Source: an uncultured Candidatus Saccharibacteria bacterium (GTDB taxonomy: Bacteria > Patescibacteriota > WWE3 > UBA101185 > UBA10185). From it: DNA of 64,000 nucleotides. The translations under genes were made by a program, and so were the position numbers. Below the pieces are notes generated by a model that saw only the letters and a program-made list of their open reading frames with translations, searched no databases and had not been told where the DNA came from. Shown here in pieces: positions 19,780-64,000 of the stretch (positions are counted from its first letter, which is position 1; each line of letters starts with the position of its first letter). Where the stretch lies: NCBI GenBank assembly GCA_964643995.1, contig CAZXUJ010000001.1, positions 141,795 to 205,794 of the forward strand, read 5' to 3'.

Positions 19780-19791
19780 GTTTCAAGTTTA

Positions 19792-22073: not shown

Positions 22074-22092
22074 AATTAAGATTGATTATATA

Positions 22093-25650: not shown

Positions 25651-25692
25651 TAACACTACAAAAATGTTTGCTACTCTGACATAATTTACATA

Positions 25693-26046
25693 GTGAATCC
25701 TCAGAATCCAAAAAACAAATTAAGTAAACCCATTGTTGTTACTGCCGTAACCAGAAATTCCGCAGGACATACCGAGTTTGATAATTGCCGTACAATACCT
25801 ATAATCGGAGCCAATGGTGTCACAGCACCAATCGGCCTCAGACTTTATGCATTAGTGCAACCAATTACCAATGGTAAATATTTTCCTGCAGAGCCACTTC
25901 CTTATCAAGGATATAAAATAAGTGTAGAAGGTACCTTAGGAAATTCCGACGAAATAAGCAGAGACGTAACTGTTTACAAATCATTTCCATTTGCTACAGG
26001 CGTACTTGATTTTGCACTATATGCAAAAAATAGTTTAACTCCCTAA
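25693..26046 (+). CDS. Hypothetical protein (117 aa), co-transcribed with the downstream transglutaminase-like gene.
   Basis: Intact ORF with typical codon usage. Its stop lies 2 bp before the next start. Confidence 0.45.
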   Translation: MNPQNPKNKLSKPIVVTAVTRNSAGHTEFDNCRTIPIIGANGVTAPIGLRLYALVQPITNGKYFPAEPLPYQGYKISVEGTLGNSDEISRDVTVYKSFPFATGVLDFALYAKNSLTP

Positions 26047-26047
26047 A

Positions 26048-30809: not shown

Positions 30810-31244
30810 CTATTCACCACAATCTAATATTAGTTGTTGACCTACTGATAAACGTGCCCTGTGGATGTTTAGATTGTTTGCCTTGGCCAAATATTTGTAT
30901 TTTTCGCCATCCCCACATGCCCTTTTTGCTACATGCCATAGACCCTCACCTTTTTCAACTGTTACGTATTCGCTGGTATCAAACACAGAGTCTTTTGCTA
31001 AAACTTCTTCCTCTGAATTTTCAACAAGATCTGGAAGTTGTGGAGTAGAACCTCGACGCAGTTCATTTATGAATGTTTTATCACTAGGAGTCGAGTTGAA
31101 GTACCAAACACTAAACACCGAAACCAAAACTAATATCACAATACCCGTAACAAGGTTTTTGAAACTGGCATTTGGATTTTCTTTTTTGATAATATCTACC
31201 AGTTCATCAAATTTAGCTTTTATTCTATCCAACTCAATCATCAT
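30810..31244 (-). CDS. LysM domain membrane protein.
   Basis: N-terminal TM and a C-terminal LysM ([27 protein letters not shown]...GQQL). The start was chosen at MMIELD. The longest ORF extends to 31310 and would overlap the PBP gene. Confidence 0.55.
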
Positions 31245-43355: not shown

Positions 43356-43458
43356 GTAAAAATCATACATAAAATGACGACTACGTGCAATAACAAACAA
43401 AATGTATAACTTTATGTTTGCGAAGCATTTACTAATCAACTATCCTTATTTCCATCGT

Positions 43459-44565
43459 ATGAAAAAATTCTTAATACCTATAGCACTAACAGCATTGATA
43501 GCAACAGGAGCCATAATTGTAAAACTAAATCAAAATAACAATCATAACAAAGAGGTACTTTCACCACTGGCAAAAACTAATAAAGAAAGTGCTTTCAAAA
43601 AACAACTTTCAAAACTCACAAGCACAGAAACTGAACCCGAACCGGAATTTAATACCGACTTAGCTAAGAAAGATATAAGTAACATTCTATTGCTTGGTAT
43701 CGATAGACGAAGTAAAGATGAGGCAGGATACAGAACTGACATAATGATATTACTAACGATAAACAAGAAAGATAACAGGGTGGTTTTGACCTCACTACCA
43801 AGAGATTTGTGGTATCGTGGAGGTAGAATAAATGCTATATACGTACAAAATGGCTGGGAGGGCATGCAGCAAGCCTTTGAGACTATAACTAAACAAAAAC
43901 CCGATAAATACATTCTTACCGATTTTGAAGATTTTTCATGGATTGTAGATCAGATGGGAGGGGTTCCAGTAAACATAACCACAACATTTACAGACTCGCA
44001 ATACCCCGTAGACGCTACAAAAGAATATCAAACTGTCTCATTTACTGCCGGACCGGAAAGGCTTACTGGAGAGAGGGCATTGATATTTTCTCGATCACGT
44101 AAAGGTGATAATGATAATGGTGATTGGGGAAGAATGAGAAGGCAGCATCTCATACTAAAAGGTATGCTTGAGGCTGTAGTGCAACCTCAGAGCTTTATAT
44201 GCAAAAACACAGAAAATGCAACTGAAAACGTAGGTATGTGCGAAACGAAGGTAAATAAAAATACTCTTGAGTATGCCCTAAAGATGGTCACGAGCGGACG
44301 CATGAGTACTAATCTAGCTTTAGAAGACCTCGAATATCTATGGGATTTCTATAAGGATAAGGATAAATACGTAATTGAATCACTACTAATGGACTATGAA
44401 TATGTGTTCACACCTCCCGCGGAAGAGTATGGTGGTGCATGGGTACTGGCACCAATTGGTAACGATTACACCAAATTCCAAACAACACTTAATAATATGA
44501 TTTATGGGATTGCAACACAAAATGTGGAAAATGTTGAACCTGATATCGAGACACCTGCGCTGTAA
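43459..44565 (+). CDS. LytR-CpsA-Psr (LCP) family protein.
   Basis: LCP core NILLLGIDRR...RTDIMILLTINKKDNRVVLTSLPRDLW. The start was chosen at MKKFLIPIAL (signal anchor). Confidence 0.8.
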   Translation: MKKFLIPIALTALIATGAIIVKLNQNNNHNKEVLSPLAKTNKESAFKKQLSKLTSTETEPEPEFNTDLAKKDISNILLLGIDRRSKDEAGYRTDIMILLTINKKDNRVVLTSLPRDLWYRGGRINAIYVQNGWEGMQQAFETITKQKPDKYILTDFEDFSWIVDQMGGVPVNITTTFTDSQYPVDATKEYQTVSFTAGPERLTGERALIFSRSRKGDNDNGDWGRMRRQHLILKGMLEAVVQPQSFICKNTENATENVGMCETKVNKNTLEYALKMVTSGRMSTNLALEDLEYLWDFYKDKDKYVIESLLMDYEYVFTPPAEEYGGAWVLAPIGNDYTKFQTTLNNMIYGIATQNVENVEPDIETPAL

Positions 44566-44854
44566 TAGTAACTATATCGACGCGCCATTGTTGGGACGGA
44601 TACTTAATGAGATAGCTGTCAATCGCTCTTGAGAGAGCACGTTGTTTATAGTAATGGAGGGCACAGCTAACATCACCAAAGTTTTTATTGCTTCTGAATT
44701 TGACTTCAATAAACACTAACCATATAGAGTCCCTCATCACTAGGTCAAGTTCCCCCCAATGTGTTGTCCAATTACGAACAACCAAAACATATCCAAGGCG
44801 TTCGAGATATTTACAAGCGAGTTTTTCACCGAAATTACCACGAACTTTGTTCAT
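44489..44854 (-). CDS. yraN: YraN family (UPF0102) endonuclease.
   Basis: GEKLACKYLERLGY...ELDLV...FIEVK motif set. The 3' end overlaps the LCP gene by 77 bp. Confidence 0.7.
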   Translation of the reverse strand: MNKVRGNFGEKLACKYLERLGYVLVVRNWTTHWGELDLVMRDSIWLVFIEVKFRSNKNFGDVSCALHYYKQRALSRAIDSYLIKYPSQQWRVDIVTITAQVSRYQVQHFPHFVLQSHKSYY

Positions 44855-44892
44855 ATACTCATATTGGAATGAAATATTGAAAATACCAAACG

Positions 44893-44917
44893 TAGTCTTC
44901 TATAGATAGTAGACTAC
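44893..44917 (-). terminator. Hairpin (GTAGTCT, 12-nt loop, AGACTAC) overlapping the ftsI stop codon and followed by a T-rich tract. Candidate terminator of the mraZ operon.
   Basis: A 7-bp inverted repeat seen in the sequence. On the minus strand it is followed by GTTTGGTATTTTC. Confidence 0.3.
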
Positions 44918-46737
44918 TCCTGATCTAGAGACGATGACGAGGTTGACTCAACCACAGGAGTTGTATCAACTACTTTATCCGGGGCAATACCATAATACTT
45001 TACTAAGTCATCAGCAATACTCATCCATAAAGGTACCGCAGTCTCTGCCGCATAAATACTTGCCTCAGGCTCTTCTAGCTTTACAATCATCGCAAACTTT
45101 TTAGAACCAGACAAAAATCCTACAAAAGTAGTATTTGTTTTACTAGGGTCATATTTTCCATTAACAGGTATCTGTGCTGTACCAGTTTTTCCAGCAATTT
45201 TATAGTTTTTTATATTAAAAAACTTGGATTCTCCACCCTCAACAGCACTGGTCAAAAGATCTACCATGGTGCTAGAAGTATCTGGTGTCATCACACGATT
45301 TATAACTTTGGTAGGTATCGAAATATCTTTACCCTCATCGACAACCTTTTGTACTATACGTGGGCGCATTAACTGACCGCCATTAGCTATGGCACAAAAA
45401 GAATTGATTACTTGTAAAGGTGTCGCCGATATACCTTGCCCAAAAGAAATTGTTGCCAAATCAATTGCTGTCCAAGTATCATAGGGACGAATAATCCCAG
45501 TGTCTTCTCCCTCAAGATCAATACCGGTAGTGCGCCCCAAACCAAACTTTTCAAAATAGTCATTAAGGTCTTTGGAACCAACCAAATGTCCTACCCATGC
45601 AGCACCAATATTATTAGACTTTTGTAAAAGCTGCTCCACAGTTTGGACACCATGATGCCTACCATCCCAATTGTTTATTACATAGTCCGAGTATTGAACT
45701 GGCCCCGAATCTACAAATGTGGAACTAGGTACTACTTTACCCAAGTCAATACCTGCGGATACTGTTAACGCCTTTATAACCGAACCAGGTTCATAAGTTT
45801 GCGAGATCGCAAGATTAGTACGCTCAACATCCTTACGTTTACCTGTGTTTAAATCTTTTTTTTCGAAATCATTAAAGTTTGCAGGATCATATGTCGGATA
45901 ATTTGCCAAAGCTATGATATCTCCCGTAAATGGATCCATAACAATCACGGTACCAGATACCGCATCATACTCTTTAACACCACGCTCTAAATGCTCCTCA
46001 ACCAAATATTGAACACCACGGTCAATCGTCAAAACAATGTTTCTACCATCAATAGAATCTACCCTAGTGTAACCACCTACAAGTATAGGTGCCCCCAAAG
46101 CGTCACGTTCTTCAACGATTCTTCCGGGTTTTCCGGTTAGATCACCATCCAAACTGCCCTCTACACCAAAGTATCCTTGTTTATTACCTAACTCATCACT
46201 AGCTACAAAACCCAATACGTGAGAGGCTAAGGAATGCTCGGGGTAGTAACGTAGGGGTTCTTCTTCAAAACCTATACCATCAATATTTAGACTTTCAATC
46301 TGTTTTTTTTCGTCTGGGGTCAGATCACTAATCACCTTAGCCCAATAAAGATCTTTTTCAAGTAATAACTTTATTTTTTCTTGGTAAAAAGCTTCAGGAA
46401 ATTCTAACTCAAGCTTGTTTATCTTAGCGAGCTCGGTAGATAACTTAGCCGTTAAACCTGCCTTATCCTGAACGCTATTAGGTTCGACATACAGTAGGTA
46501 AGAAATCTGCGTCGTGGCTAATGCATAGCCATCACTACTCAGGATATCACCACGCTTGGCAGGAACTTCCACAGCATCCCAATACTGCTCCTGCGCCTGC
46601 GCCTTGAAGTCTTCGTGATGAATTATTTGAATACTAAATAACCGAGCCAAAAATATAAGACAAATAAGAAAGAAAAAGTATTGTAGGAAATTAATTCTTA
46701 GATTATTAATGGAAGATCTATCGGTCTTTCTATACAT
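44914..46737 (-). CDS. ftsI: Class B penicillin-binding protein (FtsI/PBP2-type transpeptidase).
   Basis: PBP dimerisation domain plus transpeptidase blocks (SVIK, SNN, KTGTAQ). Positioned after ftsL in the mraZ cluster. Confidence 0.85.
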   Translation of the reverse strand: MYRKTDRSSINNLRINFLQYFFFLICLIFLARLFSIQIIHHEDFKAQAQEQYWDAVEVPAKRGDILSSDGYALATTQISYLLYVEPNSVQDKAGLTAKLSTELAKINKLELEFPEAFYQEKIKLLLEKDLYWAKVISDLTPDEKKQIESLNIDGIGFEEEPLRYYPEHSLASHVLGFVASDELGNKQGYFGVEGSLDGDLTGKPGRIVEERDALGAPILVGGYTRVDSIDGRNIVLTIDRGVQYLVEEHLERGVKEYDAVSGTVIVMDPFTGDIIALANYPTYDPANFNDFEKKDLNTGKRKDVERTNLAISQTYEPGSVIKALTVSAGIDLGKVVPSSTFVDSGPVQYSDYVINNWDGRHHGVQTVEQLLQKSNNIGAAWVGHLVGSKDLNDYFEKFGLGRTTGIDLEGEDTGIIRPYDTWTAIDLATISFGQGISATPLQVINSFCAIANGGQLMRPRIVQKVVDEGKDISIPTKVINRVMTPDTSSTMVDLLTSAVEGGESKFFNIKNYKIAGKTGTAQIPVNGKYDPSKTNTTFVGFLSGSKKFAMIVKLEEPEASIYAAETAVPLWMSIADDLVKYYGIAPDKVVDTTPVVESTSSSSLDQE

Positions 46738-46747
46738 GATCTCCTAA

Positions 46748-47089
46748 TTATAGTGTAGTCAGGGAAGCCTTTGAAACTGCTGAGTTTATCTTCTGCGCAT
46801 ATAAATCGTTCTTGCTGAAACCAAGATCATAAGCTTGGGATTCAATATACTTTAGTGAGGAATATTTTGACTGCTCTAGTGCTAACTCCGATATCTCCTT
46901 CTCGAGTTGTGCACGGCGCTGTTCGAGCTGAACTATTTCCTTGCCTTTTATAGCAAGCCCGTTAGTGACATACATCTGTACGGCTAGAGTAAAAACAAAG
47001 GAGATTACTGAAAAGATAAGAAGATAAGCCACAAGATTGATATTACGAGGTCGTCTTCTATTAAAATTTTGGGCAGAATTGTTAAGCAT
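46748..47089 (-). CDS. ftsL: FtsL/DivIC-like septum formation protein.
   Basis: Short cytoplasmic tail, one TM, a coiled coil (LEQRRAQLEKEISELALEQ). Lies between rsmH and ftsI. Confidence 0.55.
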   Translation of the reverse strand: MLNNSAQNFNRRRPRNINLVAYLLIFSVISFVFTLAVQMYVTNGLAIKGKEIVQLEQRRAQLEKEISELALEQSKYSSLKYIESQAYDLGFSKNDLYAQKINSAVSKASLTTL

Positions 47090-47999
47090 CTACTAATTTT
47101 TTCTCGAATACACGCATTTTTGCACTTCTGGATTTTCTGTTGATCTCTACCTCACTCGCTGTAGGCGTGATTGGTTTTTTTACAAGAGCGCTCATATAAA
47201 AACCCAGATCAGATCCATTAGGCCGTGCATAGTCGTGACCAAATTTCTTTACTTCACGATCTTCCAACGAATGAAACGATATGATCGTCATGCGTCCACC
47301 AGGCAGTTTTAGAAGCTGCACGGCCTGGGGTAATGAATTCTTCAAATTGCCAAGTTCATCATTTACTACAATACGAAGTGCTTGAAACACACGCATTGCA
47401 GGATGTGATTTACCCGAGTCATACCCTGAAGAAGCTTCAGCAACTAACAAATCAGCAAGTTGTTTAGTTGTTTGAATCTTTTTCAATGCACGACTTTGAA
47501 CAATAGTCTCAGCAAATCTTTTTGCTAAGTGTTCTTCACCATATTCCCTAAAAAGTTGGGTCAATTGCTTATCCGACAATGTGTTAACAAGATCCGCTGC
47601 GGTTACACCCATGCTTTGATCTACACGCATATCAAGAGGCGAATCGCTTAAAAACGATATGCCTTTTGATGTATTTTCAAGTTGCGAAGAACTGTAACCT
47701 AAATCATATAAAATACCATCCACAGTTCCAAAACCATTGCTAGTTGCCAATTCTTTTATATCCTTAAAGTTTCCCAAAATTCCAACAAAATTACTAGATA
47801 GACCTAATGACCTAATTCGCTCGAGGGCAGTTTCGAGCGAATTAGAATCATAATCAATACCTAAAACAAAGGCGCCCTTTTTTAAAAATTCAATGGTGTG
47901 TCCACCATCACCCAGTGTGCAATCAATAATTTTTTTCCCATGACCGGCGTAAATATAATCATTTACTTCAGTTAGTAAGACCGGTTGATGATATGTCAT
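47082..47999 (-). CDS. rsmH: 16S rRNA (cytosine1402-N4)-methyltransferase.
   Basis: HQPVLL...IDCTLGDGGHT is the MraW signature. Confidence 0.9.
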   Translation of the reverse strand: MTYHQPVLLTEVNDYIYAGHGKKIIDCTLGDGGHTIEFLKKGAFVLGIDYDSNSLETALERIRSLGLSSNFVGILGNFKDIKELATSNGFGTVDGILYDLGYSSSQLENTSKGISFLSDSPLDMRVDQSMGVTAADLVNTLSDKQLTQLFREYGEEHLAKRFAETIVQSRALKKIQTTKQLADLLVAEASSGYDSGKSHPAMRVFQALRIVVNDELGNLKNSLPQAVQLLKLPGGRMTIISFHSLEDREVKKFGHDYARPNGSDLGFYMSALVKKPITPTASEVEINRKSRSAKMRVFEKKLVDA

Positions 48000-48005
48000 A
48001 TAAAG

Positions 48006-48410
48006 CTACTCACTCAAAGTTTCTGTAACTTTACCCATATACATATCCCAAGAGTTTTTATCCCAAAGCTCAATATGATCTCCGACACCAATCACAGCTG
48101 TTTTGTTTTCCAACATGGCATACTCCTTTAAATGAGGAGGAACAACAAATCGGCCTTGAGCATCAATGCTGGCTTCACTAGCTGAAGTGTACAAATAACG
48201 CTCTAGATCACTGCGCTTCAAATTACCTGGCAAATTTTCAACTTGCTTCTGAGCCTTTTCCGCCCAGTCGTCCTTATCGTAAACCAAGACACACTTTTCA
48301 AAACCTTTGGAGAGAATGATTTCGCCATGACTTATCTGATCCCGCATCTTGCTGGGCAAAGCAATTCTGGAACCTTCGGTAATGTTTGGATTGTATTCGC
48401 CCAAAAACAT
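48006..48410 (-). CDS. mraZ: Transcriptional regulator MraZ.
   Basis: Two DXXXR-type MraZ repeats. The start was chosen at MFLGEYNP by analogy to E. coli MFRG. The longest ORF starts 30 nt upstream. Confidence 0.85.
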   Translation of the reverse strand: MFLGEYNPNITEGSRIALPSKMRDQISHGEIILSKGFEKCVLVYDKDDWAEKAQKQVENLPGNLKRSDLERYLYTSASEASIDAQGRFVVPPHLKEYAMLENKTAVIGVGDHIELWDKNSWDMYMGKVTETLSE

Positions 48411-48421
48411 TTTCATAAAGC

Positions 48422-48451
48422 CTTTCATGTGATTCACCATTCCTCACCATT
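48422..48451 (-). promoter_or_regulatory. Direct repeats ATGGTGA-N3-ATGGTGA (10-bp period) plus a third degenerate copy immediately upstream of mraZ. Candidate MraZ box array.
   Basis: On the minus strand: cAAATGGTGAggaATGGTGAatcacATGAAAG. MraZ operators elsewhere are GTG-rich direct repeats with 10-bp periodicity. Confidence 0.35.
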
Positions 48452-52842: not shown

Positions 52843-54777
52843 TTATAAAGTGGTAGTGAAGGTTTCGTCTGTTGAAAGTTCAACTTCAGTTTTTGTACCA
52901 TTGACCGTCACGAAATGTTTTTCACGATCAATACCTGACTGTTTTTGCAAGTAGAGGCTATAGCTATCGTCTTTGATCAAACCATTAGGCAAATAATACT
53001 TAAACACCAAATCTTTTGTTTCACCTTGATTTAAAGTAATGTACCCATGAAACATAGTTTTGTTACGATCTAGCACCTCTTCGGTACCACTCGGATCGGC
53101 AGAACCCTCTACACTAATTAATTCGGATCCTGCTGGAACATAAAGGCGAACCCAATCCTGATAAATTTGAATAAATGGATCGTAAGATGGGTCTTTTTCA
53201 CCGTAACTAAATTTAACACGTACTGTTCGCACATAACGGCCGTTTTCTTCTGCCAGTTCGTGCTCGATTTGCTTGTTAACAAACCAGCCATTCGTCTTAC
53301 CACCACCTAAATTAGTGGACGTTACTAAAGCATAATCACCAGCAACTGGGTTTACGATACGGCCCCCAAAATTATATTTATCAATGAGTGCCTGTGCATC
53401 TGAGTCGAACACATATGCTTGTATGTGTTTCCTCATTGCCAAGTCAATACCCTTGTCGACAAGTTTTGGCCAGAGGTTGCTATCAGACTCGAAAACATTA
53501 ATTAACATTTCCTCCATTAAATCGCCTAGTATTCTCTTACGATTTGCCTGCTCTCGTAGAGCCAGACTAGCTATTTTTTCAAGTTCAAGAGTAACTGTAT
53601 CAGGGGAATATGTAACACCATTCAATGTAACTGGGCCGGTTATTTCTAGGACTTCTTCTAGCACACGAGTATCAATTGTAAATACACCGTCAACAGGTTT
53701 AAAGTCACTACTTAAAGGCATAGCCAAATTCCAAAAAACCATGAATTGATCAACAGATGTTGGCAAATCAGGTGATATGTTAGCATCGCGGGCAAACATA
53801 CGTTCAACCTTCAAGTGATTTTCGTAAGCTGCAGGAACTTTTGGAAATGTGTAATATGAATCTATGGCATCCAATACGAAGTCTACATTATAGGTACCAT
53901 TTGAAGAAAAATCAGAACTTAGCAATGCATTAGAAAGCTTAAAGGTAGACACGTAAGTCCAGAAACCGCCAGTACCTCGTATTTCTTTATCATTTTGGAA
54001 AAGGATCATGTAACGTTTTTCACCGGTTTCAACACCAAGGAGAGGTGGAATAATGGTTAACGCTTTTTTAATATCGGGTGCCGATTCATTAAGCTGAACC
54101 AAAGCTTTTTGAGTAGTTGCAATAGTATCTCTCAATGGAAAACCTCTAAATTCCTCTGGATATCTATTAGCATCTATTTTAGATAATTCTTCACCGGCGA
54201 GAGCAAGCTTTTGTAAAACTACATCAGATCCGCTTGCAATTTCGGGCATAATACCTACCCATGTGGCGAATGCTTCGGCAAGTCCTGTTTGAACTACTTC
54301 CTGCTCCTCAGAAATTTTGAACCCACCGGCGGCTGCAAATGGGCGCATCAAGACTATAGCCTCACGACCTGCATTTAACATGTGAAAACTTGCCTCGATG
54401 AAATGTTCTGAATCGTTGTAATACTGTTTTGTAAATCCTATATTACTTGCCCAACCTACATTTTCATCACGAGCAACTCTTAAATCACGGAGGTTTTGTT
54501 CAGTTTTATCAAAAAGTTTTTCAAGTGTAACTAAGTCTCTGTTGGCTGCGGCAAGTTTAATCTCGGCAACATCAGCTTTGAGAGTGTTAATATTGGTTAA
54601 AAGTGAGAGGGCTGGTTTTGCAAACAAAAAGTAAAATACTAATCCAAAAGCAAGCAATATCCCAAGTAAAATGCCCAGAAAACCAAACAACTTTTTATTT
54701 TTGATAGGTTTCTGTACTTTTCCGAAAGCAGTCTTACTTTCTTTTGAATTAAAAAATGTAGCTTCAGCCATAGACAA
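52843..54777 (-). CDS. DUF4012 domain membrane-anchored protein.
   Basis: N-terminal TM, then a large extracytoplasmic domain with an ILFQNDKEIRGTGGF block characteristic of DUF4012. It heads a glycosyltransferase cluster. Confidence 0.5.
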   Translation of the reverse strand: MSMAEATFFNSKESKTAFGKVQKPIKNKKLFGFLGILLGILLAFGLVFYFLFAKPALSLLTNINTLKADVAEIKLAAANRDLVTLEKLFDKTEQNLRDLRVARDENVGWASNIGFTKQYYNDSEHFIEASFHMLNAGREAIVLMRPFAAAGGFKISEEQEVVQTGLAEAFATWVGIMPEIASGSDVVLQKLALAGEELSKIDANRYPEEFRGFPLRDTIATTQKALVQLNESAPDIKKALTIIPPLLGVETGEKRYMILFQNDKEIRGTGGFWTYVSTFKLSNALLSSDFSSNGTYNVDFVLDAIDSYYTFPKVPAAYENHLKVERMFARDANISPDLPTSVDQFMVFWNLAMPLSSDFKPVDGVFTIDTRVLEEVLEITGPVTLNGVTYSPDTVTLELEKIASLALREQANRKRILGDLMEEMLINVFESDSNLWPKLVDKGIDLAMRKHIQAYVFDSDAQALIDKYNFGGRIVNPVAGDYALVTSTNLGGGKTNGWFVNKQIEHELAEENGRYVRTVRVKFSYGEKDPSYDPFIQIYQDWVRLYVPAGSELISVEGSADPSGTEEVLDRNKTMFHGYITLNQGETKDLVFKYYLPNGLIKDDSYSLYLQKQSGIDREKHFVTVNGTKTEVELSTDETFTTTL

Positions 54778-54846: not shown

Positions 54847-55479
54847 TTATACGGCACCGCGACCAGTAATTACAACGAGGGGTGTTTTTATAATTATAGA
54901 TATATCGTACAAGATGGATCGGGATTGTGCATATGTTGCATCCATCTTAATACGTTCCTCAAAGTTCACTGCAGACCTGCCCCCTATTTGCCAAGGACCT
55001 GTAAGGCCAGGTTTCACTGTCAAAGTAGTGTCTACATGCTCTTTGTAATCAGGGTGCTTTTTTATCTGCTCATCTAACTCAAATGGGTAATAAGCACGAG
55101 GACCAACAATACTCATATCGCCTTTCAAAATGTTCAAAAACTGTGGCATCTCATCAATACTATACTTTCTCATCACTGAAGCACCAGGTAACCAACGGGG
55201 GTCATTGTCCAACTTATAGTTGTTCTCTTTATATTTTTTGTAGAGTTCAGGATTGTTTTTTAGCCATTCTGAAGCATTTGGAATCATGGATCTAAATTTA
55301 TACATACGAAAGGAAGATTTATCTTTGCCGACCCTATTTGGCGTATCAGCCATAATGGGACCGTTTGGTGAAACTATTTTAATAAAAACAGCCGTGACTA
55401 TCATGACAGGTGCAAATACTGTTAGTCCAACTAAAGCTCCCAAAATGTCTAGTAGTCTCTTTTCAATTTTATAAAGCAT
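54847..55479 (-). CDS. Small initiating sugar-phosphate transferase (PglC/WbaP C-domain type).
   Basis: Single N-terminal TM plus a Bac_transf domain (YKFRSM, DEMPQFLNILKGDMSIVGPR). Confidence 0.75.
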   Translation of the reverse strand: MLYKIEKRLLDILGALVGLTVFAPVMIVTAVFIKIVSPNGPIMADTPNRVGKDKSSFRMYKFRSMIPNASEWLKNNPELYKKYKENNYKLDNDPRWLPGASVMRKYSIDEMPQFLNILKGDMSIVGPRAYYPFELDEQIKKHPDYKEHVDTTLTVKPGLTGPWQIGGRSAVNFEERIKMDATYAQSRSILYDISIIIKTPLVVITGRGAV

Positions 55480-56575
55480 TTTCTTCCCCTACACTTTCTA
55501 CAAAGAGCCTTACTCCTTGCACAAAATTACTTTTACTGTACCTCAAAGCATGCTCCATGCAGGTAGAAGCATTATACCTTAAAGGGTCGAAACTTTTTAA
55601 TAAATTTACTAAAGATTCAACTGTTTGATCATAAAAAAACTCTCCAGTCACCAAAGGTGTGATTGTTTCAAGTGCACCGCCCTTCCCAAAGGCTATTACT
55701 GGTTTGCCAAATGACATCGCCTCTAGTGGGGTTATGCCAAAGTCTTCATATTGCGTGTTGATAAAAGCTATGCAGTTTTTGTAAAGTTGATTTTTTCTGT
55801 GTTGTGTTACATAGCCCTCAAATCTCGTCCTTCCATTAGAAATGCTTTGTAAACGTTGTTTGTCCGTCCCATCACCAACTATAACTAAGTTTAAACCTAA
55901 ACTTTCACAAGCGATTATTGCAAGTTCGATCTTTTTCCATGCTACGAGTCTAGAAACTATCAGATAGTAATTTGAATCATCAACTGAGTTATCATTTTCA
56001 GCATACGTGGAAGTTTCAACGAAAGGGTAAATTATTGTTGATTCACGATTATAGTACTTTTGGATTCTACTTTGGGGAGTAGCGGAGTTGGCTATAAAAT
56101 GATCCACCCGTTGGGCAGCAGCATAATCCCAAACGCGCAATATACTCAAAGCCGACGCTATAGTGTTAAAAAAGACAGTGTTTTCCTTTTCAAAGTAGGT
56201 AGAAGGCTCCCAGAACATTCTTCCAGGAGAATTCATATAACAAATATGTTTCGTGTTGGGTTTAGTTATCACGCCATGAGCGAATCTTGCTGACATAGAA
56301 AATACGATATCGTACTTAGAGAAATCGAAAGACTCCATAGCCATATTGTAAAGAAGTGTAGGCCCCAAAAGTCGAAACAATGTCTTTTTGAAAGGTATCT
56401 TTTGCAAAAACGAAGTTTTAAGTACAATCCCTCTAGTTGCGCAGATCTCCTCCCAATCGCGTGTTGCCATAGTTGTGAATAATGGAGCCTCAGGCCAAAT
56501 TTCAGTTACAGCAAGTAGCAAATTCTCCGCGCCTCCATGTTGGATGAGATCATCAAAAACTATGGCTATTTTCAT
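55469..56575 (-). CDS. GT4 family glycosyltransferase.
   Basis: GT-B fold. N-terminus MKIAIVFDDLIQHGGAE, and a C-terminal E..E block (GITPLEAMSFGKPVIA). Confidence 0.7.
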   Translation of the reverse strand: MKIAIVFDDLIQHGGAENLLLAVTEIWPEAPLFTTMATRDWEEICATRGIVLKTSFLQKIPFKKTLFRLLGPTLLYNMAMESFDFSKYDIVFSMSARFAHGVITKPNTKHICYMNSPGRMFWEPSTYFEKENTVFFNTIASALSILRVWDYAAAQRVDHFIANSATPQSRIQKYYNRESTIIYPFVETSTYAENDNSVDDSNYYLIVSRLVAWKKIELAIIACESLGLNLVIVGDGTDKQRLQSISNGRTRFEGYVTQHRKNQLYKNCIAFINTQYEDFGITPLEAMSFGKPVIAFGKGGALETITPLVTGEFFYDQTVESLVNLLKSFDPLRYNASTCMEHALRYSKSNFVQGVRLFVESVGEENAL

Positions 56576-57686
56576 AGTATCTTTTAACTAAAACCTCATG
56601 GACTAGTTTGCCCGATTTTTCCCAAGTAAATTGTTTAGCACGTACTAAACCGGCAGCAACACGCGTTGAGTCAGTGTCTTTTAGACAAGATACTATTGCT
56701 TCAGCAATACTCCTTTTATCACGAGGATTAAAGTAATAAGCTATATTTCCTCCAATTTCTGGGAGAGAACTTGTATTGGAGCAAACTACCTTGGTTTCAC
56801 ATGAAAAGGCCTCGAGCAATTGGATACCAAACCCCTCATACAAAGATGGATTAACAAAAGCTTCGGCGGACGAATAAATATAAGGAAGGTCACTATCGTT
56901 AACAAACCCTGTGAAGTTAAGCTTAGAGAATATTTTTTTGGTGCGCCACTCCTTCTCGATACGTTCATAAAAAAACTTTTTGCTCCCTCCTAATACTAGG
57001 GTTAGGTCTGGTAGAGTATCACCCACCAACTCAAAGGCTTCAATAAGTCTTTCCAAATTTTTATGCGGGTGCGCATTACCAATATAAAAAATATATGGCT
57101 TTTTTATACTATATTTAGATAAAATTTCTGCGGTATGTTCATTAATTTGCCTGAAAAAGTGCTTTTCCGCAGCACACGGTGTTATAAATATTTTTGAAGG
57201 TTTTACAGGATAAGCTTCTAGAATCTCATTTTTTACAGATTCTGTTACAGTGAATATGCGATCTGATTTAACAATGGCATACCATAGAACAATCTTTGCA
57301 CTGACTCTCTTGAACATGTAAAAGAAGTAAGGAAGTGTGGAAGCACGCCCAGTTTTAACTTTAGTGACAGTAAGATCATGAATAGTAACAACAAATTTTT
57401 TCAAATATAAAATCGGAACGTTAAGATTTGGAACAAATAGTATGTTTAGATTTGCGCGATAAAAATATATCGGCAATACAAACTGCTCCTTAAACGAATG
57501 CCAGCGAATATCAGTTGCTACGAATGTAAAGTTATCAGGAAGGTTAAACGAATCTCGATCTTTGGGTAAAACAAACAAGATATATTCATTGGTGTGATCA
57601 AGCTCGGAGATAACTCTGACTATGTTTCTTATGTAGCGACCTATTCCTGTTTCATTCCACATTCTACAATCTATACCTATCCTCAT
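56553..57686 (-). CDS. GT4 family glycosyltransferase.
   Basis: MRIGIDCR..GIGRY N-terminus and a C-terminal EGFGIQLLEA motif. Confidence 0.7.
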   Translation of the reverse strand: MRIGIDCRMWNETGIGRYIRNIVRVISELDHTNEYILFVLPKDRDSFNLPDNFTFVATDIRWHSFKEQFVLPIYFYRANLNILFVPNLNVPILYLKKFVVTIHDLTVTKVKTGRASTLPYFFYMFKRVSAKIVLWYAIVKSDRIFTVTESVKNEILEAYPVKPSKIFITPCAAEKHFFRQINEHTAEILSKYSIKKPYIFYIGNAHPHKNLERLIEAFELVGDTLPDLTLVLGGSKKFFYERIEKEWRTKKIFSKLNFTGFVNDSDLPYIYSSAEAFVNPSLYEGFGIQLLEAFSCETKVVCSNTSSLPEIGGNIAYYFNPRDKRSIAEAIVSCLKDTDSTRVAAGLVRAKQFTWEKSGKLVHEVLVKRYYENSHSF

Positions 57687-57704: not shown

Positions 57705-58934
57705 ATGCTTGCACAACTTACAAAGATCTCAATAGTCAGCGTGGGAAATATTGGAAATGCCTTTCTGGGAGTGTTGTTTCTCACTGCTGTGGCACGAAGT
57801 CTTAGTATCGAAGAGTTTGGCAAGTATGCCTTACTCACTACGCTTCTGGTGTCTATGTCTAAGGTGATTGATTTTGGAAGTAACTCTACATATGTCGCAG
57901 AAGCATCAGAAGAAAACAATGAGAACATAGACTCCTTTCTCATACTTAAAGCCGGGATGCTTACACTTGCATATTTTGTAGGCACGCTGATTCTATATTT
58001 CACAGATCTGCTCAATCTAGCGACGTTCATAACGTACACCCTAGGAATTATCGCCTACAGTTTTAACATTACAGTATTTGCCTTGTTTCAAAAGAAAAGG
58101 ATGTATAAAGAAGCTGTACTACTAAATTCAGTGCCCGCGAGTATCAAAGGGTTATTAGGCGTAATTGCGTTAAGTGGCTTAATGAGTCTAACATTGGAAA
58201 GAGCCTTCGCCATATTTGCCGGATCCGTGTACTTCAGTTTGATTTTATACCCAAAAATCCCAAGGCTTTACAAAACACTCAATGTAGGTTTCATAAACAA
58301 AGAATATGTAAGACATCTCGCAAAAACAGGATTTCCTGGAGGTGTAGCACTGATAATACAACATAGCTGGCCGACAATTTCTAACACCATTGCAAAGATC
58401 GCAAAGGATTTTACATCCGCTGGAATTTTTTCTGTAGCAGACAAAATAGCCAACATATTCACTCTCATCTCAGTTTCGGTTTTCACGGTGCTACTGCCAG
58501 AAAACGCACAGCGAAAAAGACTTAATCAAAAGTATGATTACAAAGGTACCTTTTATATTTCTCTCGTAATTATATTGCTGGCACTGTTTGCTACTGTAGC
58601 AGGCACCATTTTATTACCAATAGTTTTCGGACAAAAATATATTGAGTCTGTGCCAATTTTATGGATATTGATACTCAGTAGCGCATTTACAGCTATACAC
58701 ACATTCATGGACAACTACTTTTACGTCCATAAAAATGTAAAACCACTAATGTATATAAACTTGCTGAAACTCGGTGCAATGGTAATTTTGGGCTTTGCGC
58801 TTATAAAACAACTAAACTTAATTGGATTGGCCTATGCACAATTGATTGCTGCATCAATAACACTAGCCGTTACGATTTGGATAATAAAGAAATTGGAGTC
58901 TACTCAATCGCAGCTTCAGCACTCTTTAGAGTAA
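57705..58934 (+). CDS. Polysaccharide flippase (MOP/Wzx-like).
   Basis: About 12-14 TM helices and a polysaccharide-biosynthesis-protein pattern. The start was chosen at MLAQLTKI to avoid overlap with the divergent GT. The ORF track begins at 57594. Confidence 0.6.
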   Translation: MLAQLTKISIVSVGNIGNAFLGVLFLTAVARSLSIEEFGKYALLTTLLVSMSKVIDFGSNSTYVAEASEENNENIDSFLILKAGMLTLAYFVGTLILYFTDLLNLATFITYTLGIIAYSFNITVFALFQKKRMYKEAVLLNSVPASIKGLLGVIALSGLMSLTLERAFAIFAGSVYFSLILYPKIPRLYKTLNVGFINKEYVRHLAKTGFPGGVALIIQHSWPTISNTIAKIAKDFTSAGIFSVADKIANIFTLISVSVFTVLLPENAQRKRLNQKYDYKGTFYISLVIILLALFATVAGTILLPIVFGQKYIESVPILWILILSSAFTAIHTFMDNYFYVHKNVKPLMYINLLKLGAMVILGFALIKQLNLIGLAYAQLIAASITLAVTIWIIKKLESTQSQLQHSLE

Positions 58935-61929
58935 TTTGATCAGATAACTTTACTATCTCAAGTTGTATTCCCTGAATTCTGTTAGCATCTTCGAATGACA
59001 TAGGTTTAGTAGCTTTATCCTCTATTTTGCGGATTTCTCTTTGCAAATTGTTTACTAATGCTAAATCAAGTTCCTTAAGCGAAGGCATATAACCAAGGAC
59101 CCATTCGTCGCGACGTGCTTTCATCTCGATACTAGGATTACTTTCTTGAAATTTTCTGAGTCTACTTTCCTTTGTTATAAAGACCAAGTTCTCATTGTAA
59201 TTCGCATCCTCAAACTTGTCTTGGAGTGGGCCAAAATCTACAACCTCGAATGGTCCATCAGAATAAAAAAGCAATAGTGGGAGTTCTATCCTGTCGGCAA
59301 ACAGAGTTTCCTCATTACCATAAAGTTTATCCTTCTCCTTAATGAGCTCGGCCTGTTTATAAGTTAAGTCATCTGTATAGACTAGATCTTTGTTAGCCAC
59401 TAAATACAACAAATTCACAATGATAACTACATAAAGCAAAAAAACTTTTTTTACAGCACTTTTCAGAGCGGTTGCTCGGATAATTCTTTCTATGAACACA
59501 CCAACGATCAATGCAAGAAATGGATAGACAGGAATGATATACCATACCAATTTTGAGGCAGAAATGGAAAAAAAACCAAATATAGCTATAGCAGCTACAA
59601 CTACGAACCAGTCTTTTCTATAGCTGTTAAGTTTAAATGGAGTGTTTTGTATTATGTATTGTCTTACACGTGTTACCAAAGCAAACAGGCTGATAGGAAA
59701 TGCGGCCAACAAAGCTACGAACCATAAGCGCATACTTACCTTTAGTACTACTAAATACCAGTAGATTGGACGACCCTTGTCTTCAATCCCCTCAGTAGCC
59801 CTTCTCAGGACATGATAACCAATATAAGTCTTGAAAAACGAGATACCGTGCTGTTGGAGCATTATCAGGTGCCAAGGGAGAAAAATCACGGCACTCGATA
59901 GAAGGAAAAGCAAAGTGTTATTAATCAGATTACTCTCGAGTTTCTTCTTACCAGAGAATATTAGAGTTGCCTGATGTGCCAAGATAACAAGCAGAGGAAG
60001 AAAACCAACTATACCCTTGGTCATAACTGCAAGTCCCATGGATAATCCGGAAATTACCCAAAAACTTTTCTTAAGATCCTCCTCAGCATGCCAGTAAAAA
60101 TATATAGATAAAGTAGTGAAAAATGTCAGTGTTACATCAAGCATACCAATTCTGGAATAGTAAAGAAATTGAAAAGTTGTAAGTAAAACAAACGCAGACA
60201 AAAAACCTACAGTTCTGTTGTATAACCTCTTGCCAAACAAATAAACCGTCATAACAGTACCTAGACCAAAAATTGCTGAGGGCAACCGCACTGCCCACTC
60301 GCTTACACCCACCAAATGCATTAACCCAGAAACTAACCACATATACAAAGGAGGCTTTTCAAACCAAAGTTCCCCCGGCCACCAATGTAATGTAAAGTAC
60401 TCACCAGTTGTAAAAATGTTCTTGGCTATCTTCGCATAGATTGCCTCGTCCCAAGGAATTAAGTGAGTACTCCCCAAACCTGCAAAGATTAGAAAAAATC
60501 CTAATGCAAAGATAGTAAGAAAAGTTAATTTCGATGATCTTGAATAAAAAGTAACAATGTTTTCAATCATGAATTTATTTTTCAAAACGGATACACCATA
60601 CGAAAAATAAAAGACAAATATTAACCAAAAAAACTCACTTTTGTATGAATAGAATATGCCAGCTATCAACCAACCTACTACGGTAGATCCCATCGCTGTG
60701 GTTAACAACTGTTCTTTGCGGCTTGTAAGATGGAATGAACCATAAAATAAAGTACCAAGAATTACAAAGATTAACATTACAAATGCAGACATCCCAAGCA
60801 GCCCAGTTTCCGATAATTGTTCACCCCAAATAGTGTGTGCAGGAACCCGTGTGTTAAGAGCTGCAGGGTCTCTACCAAAATAAACCGTTGAGATCTCAGT
60901 TTTACTGAAGTGTTCGAAAAATCCTCCATACCCACCGCCGAGGACCGGATATTTCTCAAACACCTGCCAAGTCCCCTGTAGTAAAAGTATGTGAGAGTCG
61001 AAGGAGTCCAATCTGTAATGAAAATAGTTCTTTACCCTTGCACGAAAAGGACTTGATTTAATACTATACTCATATGCTAAAGGTATTGAAATCAATACAA
61101 ACAACCCAAATAGAAATGCTATTCCCTTGAACTTGAACTTTTGGAAAAATATCACACTCACGAAGGTTACAAACGAAAAAAATGAAATCATCCACGCAGT
61201 ACGGGAATTTGTTAGAACTAGCACAATCAACAAAACAGCAAAAATCAAGGAATTAACAACACGTTTTTTCCATGGACCCTCAACCAAAATTAGAATCCCC
61301 AAAACAGGAAGTAAACCAGCCAGAAAGGCACCATAATGATTCACATCCCAGAAAACTGAACCGACCCTAGCCAAATGGCCTGGCACGCTCCACAAAGCAC
61401 CTATTGTTATGCCAGTGGTGTTGTAAAGAAACAACTGAAAAAATCCAAACAGACATGTCAAAAAAGCTAACACTATAAAAAACTTTATGAAATGTAACAC
61501 CTCATTCGGTTTCTCACGTAATTGAAAATATAAATATGTACCAACTAAAAACACACTTGAAAAAAACCCATACAAAAACAGACTGGATGTTAGGTTCTTG
61601 GTGAAGACTATAGATATCCCCTGAATTAACCATAGAAGAAAAAAAGAAACAAAAAACGGATCATGAAATACAAAATAGAGATCTTCGATCAACTTATCTT
61701 TTGGTTTCTTCTTCAAAGCATCTATAAGTACTTTGAAAACAATGAAAACACTAAAAGACACCATTACTAAGCGTGCGGGGAGAATATCCCATCTATAAAT
61801 ACTAAAGACCTCTTTATGTAAAAGAAGTGAGGTAATCATCAAAAGATAAACTGCAAAACGAAAGTCTTTTCTTATCAATAGAAAGCTAAATGCAAATATT
61901 AAAGGTATGAGAAATAATTCTAAGCTCAT
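58900..61929 (-). CDS. Fusion protein: N-terminal O-antigen ligase/polymerase-like (Wzy_C) domain plus C-terminal GT-C ArnT/PMT-like glycosyltransferase domain.
   Basis: N-half: TNSRTAW and HSHILLLQ...GGGYGGF, a Wzy_C loop. C-half: LIPWDEAIYAKIAKNI....WFEKPPLYMW, the GT39/GT83 DE motif. A single uninterrupted 1009-codon frame. Confidence 0.65.
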   Translation of the reverse strand: MSLELFLIPLIFAFSFLLIRKDFRFAVYLLMITSLLLHKEVFSIYRWDILPARLVMVSFSVFIVFKVLIDALKKKPKDKLIEDLYFVFHDPFFVSFFLLWLIQGISIVFTKNLTSSLFLYGFFSSVFLVGTYLYFQLREKPNEVLHFIKFFIVLAFLTCLFGFFQLFLYNTTGITIGALWSVPGHLARVGSVFWDVNHYGAFLAGLLPVLGILILVEGPWKKRVVNSLIFAVLLIVLVLTNSRTAWMISFFSFVTFVSVIFFQKFKFKGIAFLFGLFVLISIPLAYEYSIKSSPFRARVKNYFHYRLDSFDSHILLLQGTWQVFEKYPVLGGGYGGFFEHFSKTEISTVYFGRDPAALNTRVPAHTIWGEQLSETGLLGMSAFVMLIFVILGTLFYGSFHLTSRKEQLLTTAMGSTVVGWLIAGIFYSYKSEFFWLIFVFYFSYGVSVLKNKFMIENIVTFYSRSSKLTFLTIFALGFFLIFAGLGSTHLIPWDEAIYAKIAKNIFTTGEYFTLHWWPGELWFEKPPLYMWLVSGLMHLVGVSEWAVRLPSAIFGLGTVMTVYLFGKRLYNRTVGFLSAFVLLTTFQFLYYSRIGMLDVTLTFFTTLSIYFYWHAEEDLKKSFWVISGLSMGLAVMTKGIVGFLPLLVILAHQATLIFSGKKKLESNLINNTLLFLLSSAVIFLPWHLIMLQQHGISFFKTYIGYHVLRRATEGIEDKGRPIYWYLVVLKVSMRLWFVALLAAFPISLFALVTRVRQYIIQNTPFKLNSYRKDWFVVVAAIAIFGFFSISASKLVWYIIPVYPFLALIVGVFIERIIRATALKSAVKKVFLLYVVIIVNLLYLVANKDLVYTDDLTYKQAELIKEKDKLYGNEETLFADRIELPLLLFYSDGPFEVVDFGPLQDKFEDANYNENLVFITKESRLRKFQESNPSIEMKARRDEWVLGYMPSLKELDLALVNNLQREIRKIEDKATKPMSFEDANRIQGIQLEIVKLSDQITLKSAEAAIE

Positions 61930-61931: not shown

Positions 61932-63074
61932 TTAAAAACCATTCTTAAGAAGAAGATCATAAATCTCCTTAGTGCTCTTCGCAGCATTCCCCCATGTATA
62001 ATCTAACACATCTTGAGATACTTTATCTGGACGTGGGGCAAAATACTCTGTTTCGATTGCTTTGGCTATGGATACAACACTTGCTGGGTCACAATAGGAA
62101 ACGTTTTCGCCAAGGTATTCGCTCGCGCGACTGCCTGAAGCTACAGCATTTGTACCACAAAACAATGCTTCAAGACTAGTTAGTCCGGTAGTTTCAAACC
62201 AACTTGCCGAAACCCCCACTTTAGCAAACTTAAGATAGTATGGAATCTCAGAGTAAGGCACTGCGGGTATATGGGTAATCCAAGAACATCTCTTTAAATA
62301 TTGATTAAATTTGCCTACGTATTCAAAGTGCTTTTTGGTGCTTTTTTTGCCAATAAAAACGAGTTTTAGATCTTTCTTATGTTTTTTTCTCAGCTTTTCC
62401 ACAGCTTCAATTATTTTTAGCTGGTTTTTTCGGGCTTCAATGCGGCCGATACAAATTATATAGTCCTCAAACGGTAATCTATTGGCGGCACGATCAATTT
62501 GGGTAGCATCAAAGAACTGCTCCCCTACTCCATTTACAACTTTTCTCCATCTGAAATCTACGTTATATAAACTCTTTAAATCTTGTGCTTCTCTAGATGT
62601 CTGAACCAAAATCATATCGGCATTCTGTAGAACATACCTTTGCATATTTTTTAGGCCAACGACTAGACTAACTACTGTAGGAAAAAGAAATCTACGATCA
62701 AAGATAGATCGATATACATTCTTGAAAGTATCTCGGTGAAATTGGTTTTTGAATAGTAGTTTAGAAATACGCCTAAAATCAAATACATACTCGGTATCAA
62801 ACCTAGATACCTCGTCGATGTTGTGGTGTATTGGAGATAAAACTAAAGTCTTCTTGGCTTTTTTGGCCTTTTTCGCATATAAATATGTTTCGGGGATCCA
62901 ATCTAGCTGAAAAAGGTGAACGATATCATAGTTAGAGTAGTCTACATTAAACCCCGGAATTATATCCACAGACAAGCCAAGCTTAGACAGCTCTGCAGCA
63001 GTATTTTCGATCTGCACTCGATCGCCTCCCCCAACCTCTAGCAGATCAAGTTTACCTTGCATTAGTACTTTCAT
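61932..63074 (-). CDS. GT4 family glycosyltransferase.
   Basis: GT-B fold with a C-terminal ETTGLTSLEALFCGTNAV block. Confidence 0.65.
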   Translation of the reverse strand: MKVLMQGKLDLLEVGGGDRVQIENTAAELSKLGLSVDIIPGFNVDYSNYDIVHLFQLDWIPETYLYAKKAKKAKKTLVLSPIHHNIDEVSRFDTEYVFDFRRISKLLFKNQFHRDTFKNVYRSIFDRRFLFPTVVSLVVGLKNMQRYVLQNADMILVQTSREAQDLKSLYNVDFRWRKVVNGVGEQFFDATQIDRAANRLPFEDYIICIGRIEARKNQLKIIEAVEKLRKKHKKDLKLVFIGKKSTKKHFEYVGKFNQYLKRCSWITHIPAVPYSEIPYYLKFAKVGVSASWFETTGLTSLEALFCGTNAVASGSRASEYLGENVSYCDPASVVSIAKAIETEYFAPRPDKVSQDVLDYTWGNAAKSTKEIYDLLLKNGF

Positions 63075-64000
63075 AAGGTTTTGTACAAATTTTCGTAATT
63101 AGTTATAAATTTCTCCATCGAATACTCCGCTAATACAAAATCTCGACCAGTTTGTACTTTCTGAAAAGCTTTCTGATAGTCATTATAAATGTTAAGCATA
63201 GAGTTATGAATAGCCTCAACTGAGCCAGTCTGGAAATATTCGAAAACAAAATCACGACCGACCTCCTTCAGTACAGGTAAATCAGAACAGACAACCGGTA
63301 TTTTCATCGCGAGGGCTTCAATCAATACCAGCCCGAAACCTTCACTCAAAGTTGGGAAAACGTAAACATCCAAAGAGTTGTATAGTTTCACATGATCTTC
63401 GTCAGGAAACGTTCCAGTTACACAAACATTATTTTCAAGTTTCAAACGATGAATTTGTGCTAAAACCTCCTCTTGCAACTCGCCTTTACCAGCTAAGAGT
63501 AAATAAACCCTATCTGACAAATCTGGGTGTTGCTTGAGTAAAAGATCGAAAGCATTTATTAACAAGTCAGTACCCTTGTTCTGAGAAAGACGGCTCAAAT
63601 TGCCAAAAACAAATGCATCAGTTGGGAATCTATACTTCTGCGACATTTCGGATCTATGTAAATTTTTATCGTACTTCGTAGGATCAAACTTAGTCGACTG
63701 AAAACCATTAGGTACTACTACTAACTTTTGGGCAGGTATTCCCTCACAAACTTTTGTATGTTTAATCGATTCGGTAAGCGCAACTTCTTTCGTGGCTAAA
63801 AACCTAACTGCGAATGAGTAACAAAATGTATATATTTTTTTCTTTAAATTCGAAACTGGCCACATGGATAAAGGTGTGTGAATATGGGAAATGCGTATAC
63901 GTGTACCGACAATAAAACCAGCTATTAAAGAATTTGCCACAGCACGCAGCTCATGAGAATGTATAATCTCAATCTGATTCTTTTTGAGAAATTTTACAAG
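63071..64000 (-). CDS. GT4 family glycosyltransferase, 5' end beyond the window.
   Basis: The EGFGLVLIEALA motif is present. The frame stays open upstream of the GTG listed at 63940 (..KFLKKNQIEIIHSHELRAVANS..) to the window edge, so the gene is partial. Confidence 0.6.
   Translation of the reverse strand, partial: LVKFLKKNQIEIIHSHELRAVANSLIAGFIVGTRIRISHIHTPLSMWPVSNLKKKIYTFCYSFAVRFLATKEVALTESIKHTKVCEGIPAQKLVVVPNGFQSTKFDPTKYDKNLHRSEMSQKYRFPTDAFVFGNLSRLSQNKGTDLLINAFDLLLKQHPDLSDRVYLLLAGKGELQEEVLAQIHRLKLENNVCVTGTFPDEDHVKLYNSLDVYVFPTLSEGFGLVLIEALAMKIPVVCSDLPVLKEVGRDFVFEYFQTGSVEAIHNSMLNIYNDYQKAFQKVQTGRDFVLAEYSMEKFITNYENLYKTL

Follow-up and report, generated by a model that had tools for sequence, protein, structure and literature searches.

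The stretch of DNA considered here (hereafter the window) comprises 64,000 nucleotides, positions 141,795 to 205,794 of the forward strand of contig CAZXUJ010000001.1 (assembly GCA_964643995.1), and comes from an uncultured WWE3-type bacterium of the candidate phyla radiation, deposited as a Candidatus Saccharibacteria bacterium. Near its right-hand end lies a glycan locus, in which one gene on the minus strand specifies a membrane protein of 1009 amino acid residues, composed of an O-antigen-ligase/polymerase-type module and an ArnT/PMT-type glycosyltransferase (Table 1). In public records this protein is annotated as "glycosyltransferase family 39"; one JGI record reads "ArnT-like glycosyltransferase/O-antigen ligase." Literature searches revealed no paper describing the fusion, which is best described as a lineage-wide combination of two known kinds of enzyme and not as a new kind of system.

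The open reading frame (ORF) consists of 1009 codons and is free of internal stops. A Pfam scan places Wzy_C (PF04932; 44.0 bits against a cut-off of 31.7) at residues 229-384, PMT (PF02366; 73.7 bits, cut-off 22.7) at residues 473-692 and PMT_2 (PF13231; 84.6 bits, cut-off 26.1) at residues 525-686; no MIR domain is found among the Pfam matches at E values up to 1. A preliminary description of this DNA had proposed a single-polypeptide fusion, based upon a Wzy_C signature in the N-terminal part and DE-x2-YA and EKPPL motifs further downstream. The hidden Markov model scan, with all three families above their curated thresholds, bears this out: PF04932 is matched in the N-terminal part, the two motifs are found at D494-A499 and E524-L528, and the frame is continuous through residues 453-467 (60529-60573), the junction that was to be checked for a missed stop. 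The NCBIfam equivalog for ArnT itself (NF009784) is matched only weakly, at 89.2 bits; since this is far under the equivalog cut-off of 567, the fusion is not an ArnT orthologue.

That two genes have been joined here through a missed stop codon or a frameshift in assembly or annotation is extremely improbable. The identical protein is encoded on an NCBI record (a 403-kb contig) and on a 117-kb Logan contig that was assembled separately. When one genome was scanned for each species, relatives turned up in 96 genomes, among them the complete genome of WWE3 bacterium RAAC2 (CP006914), and nearly all of the named ones belong to WWE3 or Patescibacteria. The 80 best of these species-level genomes were examined together with this genome's own contig, giving 81 loci, in 78 of which both modules occupy one ORF; the proposed fusion thus recurs in related genomes. 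The three exceptions (L060, L079, and L081), where the modules lie in different frames or ORFs, are the only loci to speak for an artefact, and these look like frameshifts or pseudogenes. All three Pfam domains are common to the 120 best homologues listed, most of the named ones being from candidate division WWE3 or Patescibacteria, and these proteins measure 945-1080 residues, with the exception of one 660-residue fragment on a 2.7-kb contig. The continuous ORF, the second assembly and the conserved fusion in relatives led us to discard a missed stop or frameshift.

The N-terminal module is a polytopic membrane domain of the WaaL/Wzy superfamily with a large outward loop ahead of its last three helices, which is the arrangement that characterizes the WaaL fold, and its profile alone matches WaaL (7TPG) at an E value of 1.1e-6. 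Both residues expected of a WaaL-type enzyme, the essential His of the HX10G motif and the diphosphate-binding Arg, are present and invariant. The counterpart His is essential in WaaL of P. aeruginosa (H303) and E. coli (H337),(PMC2932511) and roles have been assigned to the Arg and His residues of this type of enzyme, which forms class GT-C_B.(PMC12800693) Conservation was assessed with 70 full-length proteins extracted from the species-level loci; the N-module residues R188, D195, N197, H198, R243, R306, H313, H365, and G376 are found in all of these. An attempt at telling ligase from polymerase by motif was given up, HX10G being common to both Wzy polymerases and WaaL ligases.(PMC2932511)

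The second module carries the acidic DE pair in its first outward loop and, further along the chain, the Lys, Arg and Tyr positions that are typical of GT-C enzymes of the GT39/GT83 type, all of which align to ArnT. In addition to the motifs listed in Table 1, R710 pairs with the WQRY of ArnT, and K793 and Y797 with SKLPGY. The roles of the acidic DE motif and of the phosphate-binding Lys, Arg and Tyr of ArnT were reportedly worked out by Petrou et al. in 2016. Residues D494, Y498, E524, K525, P526, D598, R710, and K793 are invariant in the 70 homologues, while E495 and Y797 are each kept in 69. ArnT (5EZM) is the sole solved relative of the whole protein by sequence, and among solved structures it is nearer than any PMT by sequence and by fold alike. 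After the last membrane helix follows a C-terminal part with a net negative charge.

Mean identity to the query is 46% for the N module and 47% for the GT-C module, 39% for the C-terminal alpha/beta part, 18% for the linker and 15% for the C-terminal hairpin. Since the two modules are conserved alike and their catalytic residues are nearly all invariant, selection appears to maintain both as active enzymes. An AlphaFold model built with 42 homologues gave a pLDDT (predicted local distance difference test) of 87.8 and a pTM (predicted template modeling score) of 0.85, and Foldseek agrees with the folds; the whole-chain pTM is consistent with the two modules being packed in a defined way. Topology was derived from the model helices and the positive-inside rule, averaged over the 70 homologues. 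Four membrane helices and the short Lys/Arg-rich linker separate the large Wzy_C loop (290-366) from the loop bearing the DE and EKPP motifs (483-548), and Lys/Arg-rich loops alternate regularly with loops bearing the conserved residues of both modules. From this alternation, and from the net negative charge of the C-terminal domain, both predicted catalytic centers and the C-terminal domain would face outward, as in WaaL and ArnT. To the question raised in the preliminary description, whether the two active sites share one side of the membrane, the predicted topology thus says yes.

Table 1. Features of the fusion gene, its neighbors and its split relatives (window positions, unless a contig is named)
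Feature	Residues	Position	Strand	Basis or remark
Whole gene, 1009-residue fusion protein	1-1009	58900..61929	-	ATG start; stop codon 58900-58902
N-terminal module, WaaL/Wzy-superfamily polytopic membrane domain	1-452	60574..61929	-	about 13 helices
Wzy_C (PF04932) match, including large outward loop 290-366	229-384	60778..61245	-	Pfam and loop topology
R243 in motif T-N-S-R, aligned to WaaL R191	243	61201..61203	-	profile alignment to 7TPG; invariant 70/70
HX10G motif, H365 to G376 (HTIWGEQLSETG), aligned to WaaL His of AHNDIVEAASTTG	365-376	60802..60837	-	profile alignment to 7TPG
Linker, short amphipathic helix, inner side	453-467	60529..60573	-	Lys/Arg-rich, poorly conserved
GT-C (ArnT/PMT-type) membrane module	468-845	59395..60528	-	
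DE-x2-YA motif (D494-E-A-I-Y-A499), first outward loop, aligned to ArnT PDEGRYA	494-499	60433..60450	-	sequence alignment
EKPPL motif (E524-K-P-P-L528), aligned to ArnT FEKPP	524-528	60346..60360	-	E524, K525, P526 invariant 70/70
D598, aligned to Asp of ArnT LDMTL	598	60136..60138	-	invariant 70/70
C-terminal extracytoplasmic part: alpha/beta domain (846-950) and helical hairpin (951-1008)	846-1009	58903..59394	-	model secondary structure
GT4 glycosyltransferase directly upstream of fusion		61932..63074	-	Pfam Glycos_transf_1; tblastn match 72/81 loci
GT4 glycosyltransferase, cut by window end (392 residues on full contig)		63071..64000	-	tblastn match 72/81 loci
Wzx-type flippase (Polysacc_synt/MurJ)		57705..58934	+	downstream of fusion in 62/81 loci
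GT4 glycosyltransferase, variable cluster part		56553..57686	-	
GT4 glycosyltransferase, conserved cluster part		55469..56575	-	55/81 loci
Small phosphoglycosyl transferase (Bac_transf, 210 residues), likely initiating enzyme		54847..55479	-	182.7 bits; 52/81 loci
DUF4012 protein, membrane-anchored, mostly extracytoplasmic		52843..54771	-	Pfam DUF4012; 51/81 loci
Split Wzy_C and PMT_2 gene pairs, unnamed metagenomic relatives		L082:6001-8932; L084:529-2578; L085:3358-6114		

On the strand of the fusion, and with the window and contig L001 taken together, the gene order runs from a 465-residue membrane protein through a GT4, a small protein and two further GT4 genes to the fusion; there follow the convergent Wzx gene, two GT4 genes, the 210-residue phosphoglycosyl transferase and the DUF4012 protein, then RecO (found in 42 of the 81 loci), DinB and an aminoacyl-tRNA synthetase. 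The stop codon of the GT4 gene at 61932..63074 is separated from the ATG of the fusion by 2 nt, and in nearly all matching loci this gene holds the same upstream position. The 3′-ends of Wzx and the fusion share 35 nt (58900-58934), and no more than 18 nt lie between the start of Wzx (57705) and that of the next, divergent GT4 gene (57686). The fusion is thus encoded together with a phosphoglycosyl transferase, glycosyltransferases and Wzx, as is characteristic of Wzx/Wzy pathways; no Pfam family of co-polymerases (Wzz/PCP type) is found in the cluster. Of the surroundings that the preliminary description had listed, the PglC-like initiator (the 210-residue Bac_transf protein), the flippase and the GT4 genes were all recovered, whereas its count of five GT4 genes differs from ours: four lie in the window, one of them cut by its end, and three more just beyond on the same contig. 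A structure model of the DUF4012 protein gave no informative fold match and none to Wzz-type structures.

The 465-residue protein (L001:4285-5682) lies just past the right end of the window and is kept in 57 of the 81 loci. It was considered as a separate Wzy and rejected: its match to EpsG is weak (22 bits, below the cut-off), and profile comparison gives a GT-C-like protein instead. An acidic SEDT motif follows its first helix, it also matches a putative glycosyltransferase family, and its profile aligns to the PMT_2 part of the fusion with 84% probability, which gives the core locus a second GT-C-like enzyme. Between Wzx and the conserved downstream GT4 gene lies a variable insert. In the complete RAAC2 genome this insert (L017:14083-18368) holds the dTDP-rhamnose genes RmlD, RmlA, RmlB, and RmlC, a GT2 gene and GT4 genes, which suggests that the glycan contains rhamnose in the RAAC2 lineage. 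Because gene order is kept across the lineage, the locus is taken to be a core, vertically inherited glycan locus and not a variable antigen island; with this constancy across WWE3, and with housekeeping genes adjoining, its product is probably a core surface glycan, not a strain-variable antigen.

When compared with 1.84 billion representative proteins, the N module yields only 367 matches at E ≤1e-3 and 57 at ≤1e-30; the family is narrow. Its other forms include proteins of 780-930 residues that still possess Wzy_C and PMT_2, proteins of about 700-850 residues in which Wzy_C is followed by a membrane C-terminal part with no family assignment, and stand-alone proteins of 430-460 residues. Three stand-alone members are of particular value, in that a distinct GT-C gene of the PMT/PMT_2 type comes directly after the Wzy_C gene, the order being that of the fusion. 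The two genes are spaced by 56 nt, overlap by 11 nt or are spaced by 9 nt, and such pairs are rarer than the fused form. GT4 genes surround all three; Wzx is found only at L082/L083, the L084 and L085 contigs ending too early. Of the L082 proteins, one is 32% identical to the N module of the fusion and the other 40% identical to its GT-C module, and a second Wzy_C paralogue of the N module adjoins Wzx at this locus; inside the 56-nt gap between its split genes lies a hairpin-forming inverted repeat. From adjacent split genes in the same order it follows that the pair is a functional unit, fused or not.

A tandem paralogue of about 740 residues (L072:13050-15275; L075:3005-5218) comes after the fusion in six deep-branching loci (L071, L072, L073, L075, L076, and L080); it consists of a Wzy_C module with the His kept and about 290 residues of membrane protein with no assigned family. 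Although labeled Candidatus Woesearchaeota archaeon, one of these contigs, L075 (JAWABG010000068.1), has the WWE3-type fusion together with the tandem paralogue and is probably a mis-binned bacterial contig.

Elsewhere in the window, a second locus places a Wzx-type flippase (1432-2724, minus strand) beside a stand-alone Wzy_C protein of 448 residues (234-1580, minus strand), in which the conserved Arg residues are kept and an Asp stands at the position of the HX10G His of the fusion and WaaL; a 418-residue ORF with no family match (2696-3952, minus strand) adjoins this second Wzx. Peptidoglycan and division genes are found at 15338-23421, 31234-33528, and 43402-48440 and specify MurA, MraY, FtsW, MurG, FtsQ, FtsA, FtsZ, two penicillin-binding proteins, MraW, MraZ, and an LCP ligase. 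No complete peptidoglycan pathway was reportedly identifiable in the first WWE3 genome. The other window ORFs of about 1000 residues were considered as paralogues of the fusion and dismissed, being IleRS, ribonucleotide reductase and UvrA. There are no Rfam or tRNA matches in the window; a 628-nt stretch at 25420-26047 lacks both a convincing ORF and a tRNA, and matches nothing in Rfam even at E values up to 1.

WaaL enzymes (Cupriavidus metallidurans 7TPG/7TPJ; E. coli; P. aeruginosa) share only 16% identity with the N module; H313 of the fusion sits at the position of WaaL R265, the GT-C partner exists only in the fusion, the lipid A-core acceptor is reported to be lacking in this lineage, and the N module may polymerize rather than ligate. 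From ArnT (GT83; 5EZM/5F15) the fusion differs in having a C-terminal helical hairpin and an N-terminal partner, and no lipid A is expected in this lineage. Protein O-mannosyltransferases (GT39; Pmt1/2/4; bacterial PMT) are more distant than ArnT, and the fusion is devoid of the MIR domain that eukaryote-type PMTs carry in a lumenal loop. In three-component periplasmic systems of the GtrA/GtrB/GtrC type, a GT-C enzyme modifies the undecaprenyl-diphosphate-linked glycan on the outside before WaaL ligation.(Kelly et al. 2024, PMC11127046) The fusion combines the same two consecutive activities, with the differences that its GT-C enzyme is covalently linked and that the donor synthase and small flippase were not found nearby. 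The oligosaccharyltransferases PglL, PglS, and TfpO resemble it in their WaaL-like fold, their proposed catalytic His and Arg and their en-bloc transfer from undecaprenyl diphosphate without lipid A;(PMC12800693) no sequence-level match to them was seen, however, they have no GT-C module, and no target protein linked to the fusion was found. The split pairs are homologous to both modules in the same order, and differ in being two separate genes.

What is established comprises the architecture and the folds, the fact that both catalytic residue sets are conserved, the topology that puts both sites on one side of the membrane and a gene context that is kept among relatives; the donor, the acceptor, the order of reactions and ligation over polymerization are inferred. 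The reading we tentatively favor, while giving it somewhat less than an even chance, is that of a two-headed outer-face glycan-finishing enzyme, the GT-C head of which would add one sugar before the WaaL-type head transfers the glycan en bloc. At the inner face the small phosphoglycosyl transferase and the GT4 enzymes would build an undecaprenyl-diphosphate-linked oligosaccharide, which Wzx would flip to the outer face. There the ArnT/PMT-type head would add a single sugar from a polyprenyl-monophosphate-sugar donor, onto the glycan or its acceptor, and the WaaL-type head, with Arg residues holding the diphosphate and the HX10G His presumably catalytic, would pass the completed glycan en bloc from its lipid carrier to the final acceptor. 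The fusion would in this way join two steps that in Gram-negatives are performed consecutively by separate proteins, namely periplasmic GT-C modification and WaaL ligation. In the eukaryotic ALG pathway, sugars are added inside, the lipid-linked glycan is flipped, GT-C enzymes add more outside and the product is transferred en bloc; the layout of the locus is similar.

Decoration followed by transfer is favored because GT-C enzymes with polyprenyl-phosphate sugars as donors are known to modify undecaprenyl-diphosphate-linked glycans outside the membrane before WaaL ligation.(PMC11127046) It is also supported by the lack of a Wzz-type gene in the conserved core and by the second GT-C-like protein conserved in the cluster. 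The preliminary description had proposed a coupled polymerization-or-ligation and single-sugar transfer on undecaprenyl-linked substrates, and that suggestion fits all of the results and gains further support from the split pairs. The acceptor in this lineage would not be lipid A-core; a surface protein or a glycolipid is more likely. WWE3 bacteria are reported to possess no lipid A genes and many glycosyltransferases,(PMC3812714) and candidate phyla radiation bacteria to be without an outer membrane, with DUF4012 and type IV pili enriched among them.(PMC6744442)

Several observations weigh against this proposal. Common as they are to Wzy polymerases and WaaL ligases,(PMC2932511) the HX10G motif and the fold do not discriminate, and the fold searches gave no Wzy polymerase structure with which to compare. 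The N module is the sole Wzy/WaaL-type gene in a conserved Wzx locus, which favors a polymerase, and the LCP-family ligase of the window (43402-44565) could link a polymer to peptidoglycan without any WaaL-like enzyme. The supply of the GT-C donor is unsupported, since neither a donor synthase nor a small flippase was found: no GT2 or GtrA-type protein occurs among window ORFs of at least 150 residues, and no polyprenyl-phosphate-sugar synthase (GtrB/ArnC-like GT2) or GtrA-like flippase occurs in the loci examined, the L017 insert included, the GT2 genes of L001 and L017 having no clear GtrB-like pair of membrane helices. Such genes may be encoded in another part of the genome. This absence of a nearby donor synthase and small flippase is a weak point common to all readings.

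A substantial though still doubtful possibility is that the N module is a Wzy polymerase, with the GT-C module decorating each repeat unit, or the undecaprenyl-diphosphate-linked chain as it grows, with a side-branch sugar, as Gtr systems do for O antigens, and with LCP attaching the polymer to peptidoglycan in a Gram-positive-style Wzx/Wzy pathway. Besides the lack of any other Wzy/WaaL-type gene in the Wzx-containing core, where the upstream 465-residue protein is GT-C-like and not Wzy-like, this possibility draws on the history of HX10G, which was originally described as a polymerase motif,(PMC2932511) and on the existence of a wall for attachment, the window encoding the LCP ligase, penicillin-binding proteins, MurA, MraY, MurG, and FtsW. 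The second pairing of Wzx with a stand-alone Wzy_C protein (234-2724) likewise suggests that each flippase has its own polymerase. On the other hand, a co-polymerase or tyrosine-kinase regulator is absent from the core, with the DUF4012 model giving no Wzz-type match, and Wzy polymerases are usually highly variable, whereas across the lineage the N module retains 46% identity. It is WaaL that profile and fold searches bring up, although no Wzy structure surfaced for comparison, and some relatives have two N-module paralogues per locus, which would fit one polymerase and one ligase.

It is unlikely that the PMT-like module primes a Ser/Thr of a secreted protein, such as a surface-layer (S-layer) protein or type IV pilin, with a first sugar, and that the WaaL-like module, for which a sugar hydroxyl is the natural type of acceptor, then attaches the flipped oligosaccharide to that sugar. 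Enzymes of the Wzy_C type do include the protein O-oligosaccharyltransferases PglS and PglL,(PMC12800693) type IV pili abound in the candidate phyla radiation bacteria, which have no outer membrane,(PMC6744442) and a glycosylated S-layer has been proposed for WWE3;(PMC3812714) the nearest solved relative, however, is ArnT rather than PMT, there is no MIR domain, and the locus has no linked gene for a target protein. The stronger version, in which the fusion is a self-contained protein O-glycosylation machine whose two heads perform this priming and ligation on an S-layer protein or pilin, is slightly less likely still; if true, it would be a bacterial counterpart of the eukaryotic two-phase lipid-linked oligosaccharide logic and would belong to the core envelope features of an entire lineage of the candidate phyla radiation. 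We know of no two-step mechanism of this prime-and-ligate kind, which also counts against it. Quite improbable, too, is that the modules are functionally independent, or one of them a non-catalytic scaffold, and that the fusion reflects mere gene neighborhood. The linker is short and variable and split versions are evidently viable, but both modules keep their catalytic residues without variation in 70 species-level homologues, the fused or adjacent organization recurs in the same order in distant relatives, and the pTM value suggests a defined interface.

Most bacteria of the candidate phyla radiation are uncultured, and hardly anything is known of the biochemistry of their cell envelopes. 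The fusion, together with its split relatives of the same gene order, constitutes genetic evidence that an en-bloc transferase of the WaaL/Wzy type and a single-sugar transferase of the ArnT type share a substrate. How periplasmic glycan modification hands over to ligation or polymerization may be easier to study in one polypeptide, and a single-chain enzyme that decorates and transfers a lipid-linked glycan could serve glycoengineering. The protein offers a concrete and testable way into the assembly of envelope glycans in an uncultured phylum, and into how outer-face modification is coupled with en-bloc transfer.

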